62,002 nucleotides of DNA from assembly GCA_964393845.1 (NCBI GenBank), contig CAYMUX010000004.1:1-62002 (forward strand), in the 5' to 3' direction. The position numbers were made by a program, and so were the translations under genes. The notes beneath the pieces are model-generated. The model was given only the letters and a program-made list of their open reading frames with translations. It did no database searches and was not told the DNA's origin. This document shows, piece after piece, positions 50,236-57,552 of the stretch (within the stretch, counting starts at the first letter, position 1; every line of letters starts with the position of its first letter). The stretch comes from an uncultured Nitrospiraceae bacterium (GTDB lineage Bacteria > Nitrospirota > Thermodesulfovibrionia > UBA6902).

Positions 50236-53200
50236 TCAAAAGCAAGTACTATCACCCGTCTGATAAGTCGGCGTAGTTGTACTGGCCTGGCTGCTGTACG
50301 GCGAGTTGTCCGCTCCCCTGAAGGCCCTGACCCTGTATATATACTGTTTCTCCGGCTCTATCGACATAGTGTCGTTAAATATAGTTATACCTGCTGCAAA
50401 TGTCGCAATATTCACAAACCTGCCGTTCCATATCTGTACCTCAAGTTCATACCCGTCCTCGTCGTTTGCGTTGTCGGTCCAGTTAAGCTGTATCACCAGT
50501 GAATTTATCGGCGTTGCTATCAGGTTGCTCGGCGATGCTGAAAACGTCAGGTCGCAAGACTGATTGCTATATGCGGTATCCCACCCGCATGTTGCTGTCT
50601 TGTATGCCCTTATACGGTAACAGTATGTTGATCCCGCAGTAAGCCCTGTATCACTGTAACCTGTTGCATTGGCAGCAACTGTGGTTATCTCTGCATAATT
50701 GCTGCATCCACTGCCCGCACATCTCTCTATCCTGAAACCAGTCTCATCTGACGTGTTGTCTGTCCATGCAAGGTCTGTCCGGGTATCGGTAATTGCGGTC
50801 GCACTCAGACTGCCCGGGGCCGGAGTCCCCCCTGTTGTCGCTGACCCTGTATTGCTGTACCCCGAATCCCATAAAGCTGATTTATAAGCCCTTACCTGGT
50901 AGCTGTAGCTGATTGAATTGCAAACTGTGGTGTCCTGATATGCAACTACATTTGCGGCAACTACTGCTATCTCCGCAAAGCTGCTGCACCCCGCCCCTTC
51001 GCATCTCTCTATCTTAAATCCGGTTTCGCTTGCCGTGTTGTCGGTCCACGAGAGATTGTTCTGTGTCGTATTGGCAGCTGAAACTGTCAGGCCTGAAGGC
51101 GCTGAGATACTGGTCGTTGCAGACGGTGTGTTGCTTGCAGCCTCCCATAAACATGTTGCCGTCTTGTACGCCCTCACCTGGTACGTGTAGGTTGTTGCAG
51201 GGGAAAGTCCCGTATTGTTGTATGTGATTGTATTTGCAGCTAACGCAGCTATCTCCACAAAGTTAGTGCAGCCTGAGCCTGTGCACCTGTCTACCTTGAA
51301 GCCGGTCTCATCGCTTGTATTATCCGTCCACGAGAGGTTTATCTGTACCTCAGAGGACCTTGTTGCCGTAAGCACAGGCGCTCCGGGAACAGACGTTGAT
51401 GTGGATGACGTATTGCTGTAACCGGAATCCCATGCGGCTGTCTTGTACGCCATCACCCTGTAACTGTAGTTTGTTGAATTGCATGCCGTAGTGTCTGAAT
51501 ATGCTATTACATTTGCTCCTACTGCCGTTATCTCCACAAAGTTGCTGCATCCCGAGCCTGTGCACCTCTCTATCTTGAACCCGGTTTCCGAACCCGTGTT
51601 GTCGGTCCAGGCGAGGTTTATCTGTGTCGTGTTGGCTGCCGCTGCCGTGAGTCCGGATGGAGGCGCTGCGAAGGTTGTCTCCGTCTTTATGTTGCTATCC
51701 CCGGTGCTCCAGCCGCAATCCGCCGTCTTGTATGCCTTGACGCGGTAACTGTATGTTTCTCCCAGTGTCAGCCCCGTATCGCTGTATGCGGTTACCCCGG
51801 CGCCGGGTGTGGCAATTTGAGCAAAGCTACCGCATCCCGTCCCTGCGCATCTTTCAAGGATAAAGCCTGTTTCATCCGTTGTTGTATCCGTCCACGAGAG
51901 ATTGACGAATACATCTCCGACGCTCGCTGTTGAAAGCACAGGCGCGGTAATACCTGGCGTGGTTGCTGATGCCTCATTGCTCGGCTGGGTCTCCCATGTG
52001 ATGTCATATGTGTAGCAGGCTGATGACTCTTCTGTGCCAAGCGAAATATTTGGCTCTGTGGAGGCATATTTGCGAACCCTGGCATTGTCCCATTTAAATG
52101 CCTGGTTATAGTTAGGGAATCCGACCTTCAGCGGGGATTCTGAACTGTAAGAGCTATTGTAATACAGCGAGTATGAATCTGTTGAATTGCCGTAATAGTA
52201 TTTTGCTCCAGTGGTAAGCACTTCAAATTTGTAGTATTGCCATATACCTGAGGATATAGCATTGAATTGACCTCTATATGCGCCGTCTTCGTAAACCTGC
52301 AATCTGTTCCCATTGCCATCGTATACAGGATAGCCTGCATATACAAAATCTGTATAACTTACCCCTGCTCCTATGTCTTTTGCACCGAGCATCATGTAGT
52401 TTCCGCCTGTACGATAGTGATCAACCTCAAACACAAAGGGTCTGGTAAAGTTAGGAACACTATACATACCAATATTCCAGCCGGAGTTACCTCCACTTGA
52501 GATCAACTCATTATTCTGAGTAAAGTAGTTTGCTGCAGTGTCAACTTCTACCCATTTCGATGTATTAATTGTCGTCCCTGTAAAATCATCAAAAAAATCG
52601 AAGGTATTTACACCGCTGCTTACGCTCGTTGCGCTTGGGTTGCCGTAATACATATAAATCGTGTTGTTTGTCCCTGTCTTTAGCCATACAGTTGCCAAGA
52701 CCCCGTCGGTCTTGCTCTCTATCCAGTGTGGAAGCTCAGAGAATGACGTTGCGTCGTAGAACCGGATGTCGTCAAAATCCGCCTGCATGTCCGCATCATA
52801 TGCAATAGTCAGCTTCGTCTGGAAATCGGTCTGGAAGTTTGTGATCGTCAGGGGAGCGCGCCTCGTCCAGCAGCCCCCGCCTCCGTTTGAAAGTCCTTCG
52901 TTGATCGCCATCACACGGTAGTTATAAGTCGCTGTGTTACATACGGACGTATCTGAATATGAAGTGCTGTTGCGTCCGGGTTTTGTCAGTTCCGCAAAGT
53001 TACTGCACCCCGCGCCCGTGCACCTCTCTACCTTGAAGCCGGTTTCCGAACCCGTGTTGTCAGTCCACGCAAGGTTTATCTGTGTCGTGTTGGCTGCCGT
53101 TGCCGTCAGTCCGCTCGGAGGCGGCACTGTAGTGGTTGTCCCTGTGGCAATGCCGCTGTATCCCGTATTCCACCCTCCGTTGCAGGTCGCGCTCTTGTAT

Positions 53201-57552: not shown

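Follow-up and report, generated by a model that had tools for sequence, protein, structure and literature searches.

The gene pair and the integrity of the rod-protein gene

We analysed a stretch of 62,002 nucleotides (nt; the window) from contig CAYMUX010000004.1 of an uncultured Nitrospiraceae bacterium (assembly GCA_964393845.1). At one end of the window, two minus-strand genes encode a giant multihaem cytochrome c and a secreted mosaic protein of 2438 residues, which is called the rod protein here. An earlier note on this DNA had described the mosaic open reading frame at 50236-57552, and the frame itself, its start site and Pfam evidence confirm it. The note had also placed the gene directly downstream of the cytochrome with an 89-nt gap, which agrees with the cytochrome stop at 57642 and the rod-gene start at 57552, and the layout that it gave (signal peptide, two propeller blocks, 13 FN3 domains and a central module) was correct within a few tens of bases. 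The features are as follows.

50236-57552, minus strand: rod-protein gene, 2438 residues plus stop
57557-57564, minus strand: Shine-Dalgarno-like GGAGGAGG, preceding the ATG at 57552
57424-57552, minus strand: signal peptide, residues 1-43, predicted cleavage between VYA and AGGD, judged by eye
56125-57408, minus strand: first SBBP beta-propeller block, 8 blades, residues 49-476 (Pfam and blade profile)
55846-56136, minus strand: FN3 #1, residues 473-569, cysteine-free, between both propellers (FN3 profile)
54544-55833, minus strand: second SBBP beta-propeller block, 8 blades, residues 574-1003 (Pfam and blade profile)
52834-54552, minus strand: FN3 #2-7, residues 1001-1573 (FN3 profile, AlphaFold2 and Foldseek)
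52549-52869, minus strand: DUF2341 beta-sandwich, residues ~1562-1668, starting GGGGC-WTRR (Pfam, AlphaFold2)
52015-52548, minus strand: concanavalin-like (CBM66/GH16-like) jelly roll, residues ~1669-1846, ending EESSAC(1846)YTYD (AlphaFold2, profile and Foldseek)
50260-51960, minus strand: FN3 #8-13, residues 1865-2431 (FN3 profile)
50239-50259, minus strand: C-terminal tail TYQTGDSTCF with the penultimate Cys2437 (50242-50244), which is conserved across the family
57642-62002, minus strand: giant multihaem cytochrome c gene, upstream of the rod gene, cut by the window end, 35 haem motifs visible
42894-50134, minus strand: five downstream co-oriented genes (g194, g694, g287, g849 and g232), encoding secreted CarboxypepD_reg-domain and NosD-like beta-helix proteins

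The minus-strand frame ending at 50236 is open over 2476 codons, from a GTG at 57666. Translation most likely starts at the ATG at 57552, which is the sole candidate with a strong ribosome-binding site, GGAGGAGG, 5-12 nt upstream. The signal peptide is a hydrophobic stretch up to the predicted cleavage site. Orthologues have AxA-type cleavage sites at the same aligned position as the predicted one, immediately before a conserved (A/T/G)GGD(I/V)IWQ. The mature protein is predicted to have ~2395 residues, a mass of 255.7 kDa and an acidic pI of 4.4.

A gene of this kind could be an assembly chimera, a collapse over repeats or a pseudogene, and the earlier note had pointed to interruption and collapse as risks. 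The gene is repetitive, no single Logan contig spans it, its read depth in the source is low (~5x), and the gene collection has no entry for exactly this protein. However, the DNA-level repeats inside the gene are at most 81-89% identical across 93-300 nt, contigs from three runs of one rock-metagenome study tile the gene with zero mismatches, indels or joints, and all 37 conserved cysteines are in place. We judge the gene to be real chiefly because an identical order of domains and cysteine types recurs in four independently assembled Nitrospirae/Thermodesulfovibrionia metagenome-assembled genomes (MAGs) with 64-73% protein identity; the order is also found in the family member P0251. Collapse across the repeats is thus unlikely from the sequence comparisons, and that the gene is not intact in one way or another is scarcely credible. 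Within the part encoding the signal peptide (57453-57491), several Logan contigs of runs X1 and X3 end in unrelated loose ends, which may reflect strains or paralogues with a different 5' end.

The GC content of positions 50001-62002 is 0.49-0.51, as compared to 0.35-0.48 in the rest of the window. Horizontal transfer was rejected as the cause, as the excess lies at codon position 2 and not at position 3; it is there because the encoded proteins are rich in Thr, Ala, Gly and Ser.

Domain architecture of the rod protein

The rod protein consists of a signal peptide, eight SBBP blades, one FN3 domain, eight further SBBP blades, six FN3 domains, a DUF2341 domain with a jelly roll, and six FN3 domains. 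Of the Pfam families that the earlier note had proposed as a check, three scored above the gathering thresholds, with 193.1 bits for fn3 (PF00041; threshold 25), 81.5 bits for DUF2341 at residues 1592-1668 (PF10102; threshold 23.4), and 53 bits for SBBP (PF06739; threshold 20.5), while the NCBIfam scan gave sub-threshold partial matches only. A blade profile built solely from the protein's own blades delimited 16 of them, ~55-65 residues each, in two blocks of eight that would each close into a propeller, and a self-built FN3 profile delimited the 13 FN3 domains.

Structure prediction for the cysteine-bearing repeats, also proposed earlier, yielded a confident FN3 fold. The AlphaFold2 (AF2) model of FN3 #4-6 has a mean predicted local distance difference test (pLDDT) score of 96.1 and a predicted template modelling (pTM) score of 0.84; it shows 7-8 strand segments per domain, with the G strand split in two of the three domains, and its best Foldseek matches are all tandem FN3 structures (E ~1e-15). 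A pTM of 0.84 over three domains suggests that the interfaces between the modelled domains are fixed.

The earlier note had called the central module LamG-like. Its fold is supported, as by the AF2 model, a profile match to CBM66 and Foldseek the region after DUF2341 is a concanavalin-like jelly roll; the family assignment is not, as Pfam Laminin_G_3 has no match in the rod protein at E<=0.01. Laminin_G_3 modules are present elsewhere in the chain of two orthologues (L014 and L015). The model of residues 1545-1890, made with 98 homologues in the alignment, has a pLDDT of 84.5 and a pTM of 0.83. By its profile, the module is most similar to CBM66, a non-catalytic domain of Bacillus subtilis levanase (E 3e-7), with weaker matches to GH16 enzymes and laminin G domains; Foldseek relates the model to GH16 and CBM66 (probability 1.0 for both) and to the C-terminal sandwich of GH43.

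These matches raise the possibility that the protein is an enzyme acting on a polysaccharide or a small molecule, by means of a GH16-like jelly roll or a CylK-like propeller, with the FN3 domains as spacers. Apart from the structural likeness to GH16 and the C-terminal domain of GH43 that Foldseek finds, phmmer matches the blades with CylK (E 3e-8), a weak similarity that involves the first propeller block, and NCBIfam gives a partial match to the exoglucanase CbhB, which covers FN3 domains only and is far under the cut-off. However, the catalytic ExDxxE of GH16 has no counterpart, since the module's sole E-x-D lies in the aligned strand FEVDHYR, which has no second Glu. Among sequence profiles, the non-catalytic CBM66 matches best, the CylK match spans only about two blades, and no glycoside-hydrolase family of Pfam scored. 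An enzymatic role is therefore quite improbable.

Cysteines and a proposed disulfide map

Exactly ten FN3 domains carry [ED]RCxGxGC, each with at least one additional cysteine (Cys), which is the count that the earlier note had given for the 13 repeats. FN3 #2 has a Cys pair of its own (1041/1072). FN3 #3-7 combine ERCxGxGC with a third Cys that lies alternately in the EF loop (type A) and the FG loop (type B), and FN3 #7 additionally holds the junction Cys1561. FN3 #8-12 have the motif and a third Cys in the order B, A, B, A, B, with an extra Cys pair (2311/2333) in FN3 #12, and FN3 #13 is Cys-free. All 37 Cys at positions 1041-2437 are invariant in the orthologues L001-L004 (64-73% identity); Cys383 in the first propeller is not conserved.

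The pair had been described as unusual for FN3 domains, a view that we cannot support. ERCxGxxC is present in 78 of the 119 best database matches to an FN3 pair, many matches having exactly two Cys per motif, and in 293 of 519 sampled FN3 domains, where one Cys of the two occurs in just 9 domains. Even among the 150 giant FN3 proteins that a Cys-free query (FN3 #13) recovers, 38 have it. Within the modelled FN3 #4-6, the first motif Cys stands at the end of strand C and the second is within the C-C' turn. Neither a type A nor a type B Cys accompanies the pair in 177 of the 293 pair-bearing domains. Because the pair usually occurs without other Cys, it is most likely, to judge from sequence and model, a local disulfide that closes the C-C' hairpin.

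The AF2 strand map places the type A Cys in the E-F loop and the type B Cys in the F-G loop. It is established for the FN3 fold that the two poles of a domain carry different loops, with E-F at the C-terminal and F-G at the N-terminal one, so the A Cys of domain i faces the B Cys of domain i+1. We counted this relation over 15 family members from different 50%-identity clusters, and found that an A Cys was followed by a B Cys in the next F-G-loop-bearing domain in 76 of 76 cases, and that every B Cys (76/76) was preceded by an A Cys. Plain adjacency under strict alternation cannot tell A(i)-B(i+1) from B(i)-A(i+1), and the former was resolved via array ends, Cys-free domain pairs, split domains and more divergent members. 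Arrays open with A and close with B, and FN3 domains lacking the third Cys come only in twos. C2024 and C2134 are both Ala in L005, i.e., they were lost together. The rule is also kept across inserted modules ('[pA] <293> [pB]') and for type-B domains that are split by a nested Laminin_G_3 insert of ~200 residues in the C'-E loop. This covariation points to inter-domain disulfides of the form EF(i)-FG(i+1).

Two further pairs behave in the same way. Cys1561 (GGGGC-WTRR) and Cys1846 (EESSAC-YTY) are jointly present in 17 modules and jointly absent in at least 4; given that they covary, the module would be a disulfide-closed side branch, and FN3 #7 (type A) could still pair with FN3 #8 (type B). 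In the penultimate FN3 (#12 in the rod protein), the extra Cys, at alignment columns 70 and 91, are both lost in P0312 and P0317, while the tail Cys is kept. The covarying pairs and 1041/1072 account for 36 of the 37 conserved Cys and leave over Cys2437, which has no covarying partner. No orthologue has lost this residue, and it is found even in those from Geoanaerobacter, where ERCxGxxC is missing altogether. We infer from covariation and modelled topology a map of 18 intramolecular disulfides with Cys2437 free. The disulfide stapling put forward in the earlier note is thus backed by covariation, and is refined to C-C' loop, EF(i)-FG(i+1) and module-closing disulfides.

The same note had also suggested metal- or heme-adjacent chemistry. 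We found nothing that supports such a role at the Cys of the rod protein, because there is no CXXCH in its 2438 residues, so that it is not a c-type cytochrome by motif, and the pair comes with no set of His or extra Cys ligands; among the conserved Cys, only the C-terminal one lacks a covarying partner. A related explanation is that the Cys-rich FN3 array is redox-active or metal-binding (Fe, Zn or Fe-S at the A-B interfaces) and extends the electron path of the cytochrome. By topology, four Cys do meet at each A-to-B interface, namely the C-C' pair and the EF Cys of domain i and the FG Cys of domain i+1, and the partner gene does encode a giant cytochrome. However, most pair-bearing domains have no A or B Cys (the 177 of 293 given above), and the pair also occurs in unrelated contexts, e.g., peptidase S8 and YD-repeat proteins. 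B-to-A interfaces have two Cys only, and the A Cys persists in some domains that have no pair ('[-A][pB]'), which fits a two-Cys bond and not a four-Cys site. The Geoanaerobacter orthologues do not have the motif at all. A redox or metal function of the array is therefore very improbable. Judged by sequence, the Cys chemistry is that of ordinary structural disulfides of a common bacterial FN3 subtype, elaborated into inter-domain stapling, and for annotation this does away with the suggestion of redox or metal chemistry for the CxGxGC motif.

The protein family

A search with FN3 #13 and the tail as query against 1.84 billion representatives revealed at least 14 clusters that share the C-terminal signature TP-x-[YWF]-x(3,4)-D-x-x-C-x(1,2)-end. 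Members of the family come from Nitrospirota and Desulfobacterota/Geobacterales MAGs and from one fragmented contig of an Acidobacteria MAG. Twelve clusters are full length (1,918-3,842 residues), with 15-16 N-terminal SBBP blades, 11-21 FN3 domains and no CXXCH in any of the 12. The propeller-FN3-propeller head, the A/B-stapled FN3 rod, the Cys-free last FN3 and the Cys tail are constant in the family, while FN3 domains and lectin-fold modules vary in number. There are 0-4 of the latter, in line or nested, as would be expected of binding modules on a scaffold. By sequence, the rod protein is thus a modular surface protein of an uncharacterised family.

In longer orthologues (L006, L007 and L014; P0271, P0283, P0307 and P0343), modules of ~190-220 residues are nested in type-B FN3 domains, which they split at the C'-E loop, at profile positions ~52/56. 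An example is the Laminin_G_3 module at residues 1243-1462 of L014.

Conserved pairing with a giant cytochrome gene

We compared the genes of the window by tblastn with the 16 best related loci, 12 of which have an upstream flank. A homologue of the cytochrome lies upstream of the rod orthologue in all 12 flanked loci (L001-L007, L010 and L013-L016). In 11 of these loci the two genes are immediate neighbours, and in L016 ~3.7 kb separate both matches; in L010 the cytochrome and rod genes overlap by a few codons. The flanked loci belong to Nitrospirota/Thermodesulfovibrionia, Geobacter, Geoanaerobacter (two paralogous pairs) and other Deltaproteobacteria MAGs. The genes further upstream vary between loci and are mostly regulators, and the downstream CarboxypepD_reg/NosD-like genes are syntenic in the Nitrospirota-type loci and not in Geobacterales. 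As downstream synteny is limited to the Nitrospirota-type loci and the upstream genes vary, the conserved core of the locus is, on this comparison, the cytochrome and the rod protein.

A simple pattern scan found no terminator-like site in the 89-nt or the 101-nt gap that flank the rod gene, and the cytochrome and rod genes are thus probably co-transcribed. The scan for promoters and terminators gave nothing beyond the shuffled background. Rfam gave no family at threshold on the whole window, hence no riboswitch ahead of the rod gene. In the literature searched for SBBP or DUF2341 together with cytochromes, we found no description of this gene pair.

The Nitrospirota-type orthologues of the cytochrome have 1,685-1,742 residues, a signal peptide, Geobacter-type CxxxxCH/CxxCH domains, and 32 CXXCH plus 4-6 CX4CH motifs, while the two Geoanaerobacter orthologues have ~1,510-1,540 residues with 27 CXXCH and 6 CX4CH. 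Across the flanked loci, the upstream gene encodes 1,500-1,740 residues with about 33-39 haem motifs. A sequence search of the PDB with the cytochrome gave no match at E<=0.01. Large multihaem cytochromes that are predicted to be extracellular and wire-like, and that are encoded outside porin-cytochrome operons, have been described in a survey of Desulfuromonadia (PMC11492766), and by analogy the partner cytochrome may be of that kind. MccSep, a multihaem selenoprotein with five haems per subunit, is a different protein (PMC13510729), so that a link to it was rejected.

Outside its haem motifs, the cytochrome has three Cys that are conserved in the orthologues from L001-L014, in 'DCKTPRQ', in 'TNCL(D/N)' and in a C-terminal 'xCH'. 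The 'DCKTPRQ' Cys lies ~410-480 residues from the C-terminus, and 'xCH' follows the TNC Cys after 34-52 residues. The D-C-K-T-P-R-Q motif is present in 9 of the 9 cytochrome orthologues examined. By sequence, the TNC Cys and 'xCH' could make up a haem site whose spacer would be very long, or else a disulfide; in either case, the 'DCKTPRQ' Cys would be left partnerless.

The rod protein might share no more than an operon or regulon with the cytochrome and be a general adhesin or biofilm-matrix protein that attaches cells to rock, mineral or other cells. FN3 arrays, like propellers and lectin folds, are typical components of bacterial adhesins, the DNA comes from a rock-hosted community, and Geobacter surface proteins with FN3 domains have been tied to attachment and biofilm formation (PMC13194489, PMC5566968). 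The downstream CarboxypepD_reg/beta-helix genes likewise encode secreted proteins without redox motifs. However, precisely these two genes stay next to each other across phyla whereas their other neighbours are all exchanged, and in some loci their stop and start codons overlap, which exceeds what shared regulation alone usually leaves. An adhesin without a direct tie to the cytochrome is the main alternative, which we consider rather unlikely.

Proposed role

Starting from the observed architecture and its conservation, the Cys covariation and the gene pairing, we infer a function from synteny and domain content: the rod protein may be a rigid extracellular scaffold, stalk or adhesin that holds the ~37-haem cytochrome in position for extracellular electron transfer, a reading to which we give an even chance. 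The Sec-exported, acidic 256-kDa protein would form a rigid rod in which the ERCxGxxC pair closes each C-C' hairpin and the EF-loop Cys of domain i bonds to the FG-loop Cys of domain i+1, stapling the FN3 domains covalently in pairs. Cys1561-Cys1846 would join both ends of the lectin module, which would hang off the rod with FN3 #7 and #8 still stacked. The usual length of an FN3 domain is ~3.5 nm, and twelve consecutive domains of this length would make a rod of roughly 40 nm. The lectin-like module would grip a glycan of the cell envelope or a matrix polysaccharide, while contact with the cytochrome or a mineral surface would be made by the propeller head, the C-terminal Cys or both. The cytochrome would thereby be positioned for extracellular electron transfer.

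A more specific and speculative version, which is unlikely, is that Cys2437 is disulfide-bonded to the 'DCKTPRQ' Cys of the cytochrome. The cytochrome would then be covalently mounted on a stapled stalk of ~40 nm that lectin modules hold to the cell or matrix, and, if true, this bond would define a previously undescribed electron-transfer appendage that is common to subsurface Nitrospirota and Geobacterales.

Several points weigh against a scaffold for the cytochrome. The rod-gene sequence was matched in DNA runs only. No secretion system or porin gene by which a 256-kDa protein could cross the outer membrane was recognised among the scanned neighbours. The Geoanaerobacter orthologues have no ERCxGxxC, and L010, the sole one of them scanned, has no Pfam DUF2341; as both are lacking there, neither is essential to a shared function. 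Conserved synteny can also arise through co-regulation without physical interaction, and sugar binding by the module is predicted only from its fold.

Giant multihaem cytochromes are abundant in subsurface and metal-reducing bacteria, and to our knowledge it is largely unknown how they are held and oriented outside the cell. A non-haem partner that is conserved across phyla offers a concrete, testable candidate for this task, and the combination of a double SBBP head, a stapled FN3 rod and a C-terminal Cys beside a gene for a cytochrome of 33-39 haems can serve as a genomic marker. The disulfide map derived from covariation, if true, would illustrate a way for bacteria to stiffen FN3 rods covalently, by hairpin staples, EF(i)-FG(i+1) bonds and disulfide-closed side modules. 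We consider the cross-phylum pairing with the gene of a ~37-haem cytochrome, together with the orphan C-terminal Cys, to be what merits attention in this system.

Other genes in the neighbourhood

In porin-cytochrome (Pcc/Mtr-type) clusters, genes for an outer-membrane beta-barrel porin and a periplasmic multihaem cytochrome lie next to that of the extracellular cytochrome. When the neighbouring genes of the window, L002, L004, L007 and L010 were scanned with Pfam, neither was recognised; Pfam covers such porins poorly. At 41344-42264 (minus strand), there is a gene for a membrane protein of 306 residues whose C-terminal end alone shows a weak resemblance to ResB-like proteins (cytochrome c biogenesis), and this protein is conserved in the Nitrospirota-type loci. 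Further downstream on the minus strand are genes for a PhnD-like binding protein (40309-41223), a small TPR membrane protein (39172-39696) and a putative selenium transporter of the YedE family (38073-39179; TIGR04112, E 5e-113). This trio recurs divergently, right beside the cytochrome gene, in a Geoanaerobacter MAG (L010, 2395-4916).

The window has three genes for PhnD-like periplasmic binding proteins (within 14417-18203, within 22145-26091 and at 40309-41223). Two of them adjoin a signalling gene, which encodes a GGDEF-EAL protein in one case and a hybrid histidine kinase in the other, and the third heads the YedE trio; from this arrangement they look like sensor modules rather than transporters. 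Two radical SAM/SPASM genes stand beside the gene of an ArsP-type permease at 33553-38058 (minus strand). The radical SAM/SPASM genes (33553-35440) were considered as modifiers of the Cys motifs, a role that is not supported, as they have no tblastn match in the 16 related loci; few of these reach so far downstream, which makes the test a weak one.

Comparison with known systems

The propeller blades are of the SBBP type that is shared with the beta-propeller of CylK (PDB 7FH6 and 7RON) and with SBBP lipoproteins of the Leptospira LipL53 type. Compared with both, the rod protein has eight blades per block and two blocks. Its score in the LipL53-type model (NF047494) is 94.3 bits against a cut-off of 400, and its N-terminus has no [LVI][ASTVI][GAS]C lipobox.

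The jelly roll has the concanavalin-like fold of the CBM66 of B. subtilis levanase SacC (PDB 4AZZ, 4B1L and 4B1M), with Foldseek TM (template modelling) scores of 0.60-0.66, normalised to the target. The identity is just 14-16%, and the jelly roll of the rod protein differs in being fused behind DUF2341, as a putative disulfide-closed side branch of an FN3 rod. The same two-domain unit makes up DUF2341-LamG proteins of ~470-500 residues in Patescibacteria, DPANN and others, with 28-35% identity over ~80% of the module. Those proteins are stand-alone or fused to type IV pilin-like N-termini (PF07963), whereas in the rod protein the unit is an insert in a giant rod.

The wire-like cytochromes of Desulfuromonadia (PMC11492766) resemble the partner cytochrome in their many haems, in CX4CH motifs, and in that no porin gene was recognised in the scanned neighbours; the text of that survey does not contain the words 'fibronectin' or 'propeller'. 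OmpB of Geobacter sulfurreducens (GSU1394) is an outer-surface multicopper oxidase with FN3, for which an aid in attaching to Fe(III) oxides has been proposed (PMC5566968). Its likeness to the rod protein lies in the idea of non-haem surface proteins or glycans that hold the electron-transfer machinery; the two are related in sequence only by FN3, and OmpB has an oxidase domain, which the rod protein does not.

In Geobacter biofilms, cytochromes are anchored by matrix polysaccharide.

The closest relatives of the rod itself are tandem FN3 arrays of bacteria, which are annotated as FN3 protein, 'titin' or 'chitodextrinase' and have the same FN3 subtype ('W-[TS]-D-N-x-x-N-E-x-G-F-x-I-E-R'). They likewise carry ERCxGxxC in the C-C' turn, as in the 78 of 119 best matches, and most of them have only this pair. 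Unlike these arrays, the rod family combines a third Cys that alternates between the EF and FG loops with a double SBBP head, nested lectin modules, a C-terminal Cys tail and a cytochrome partner.

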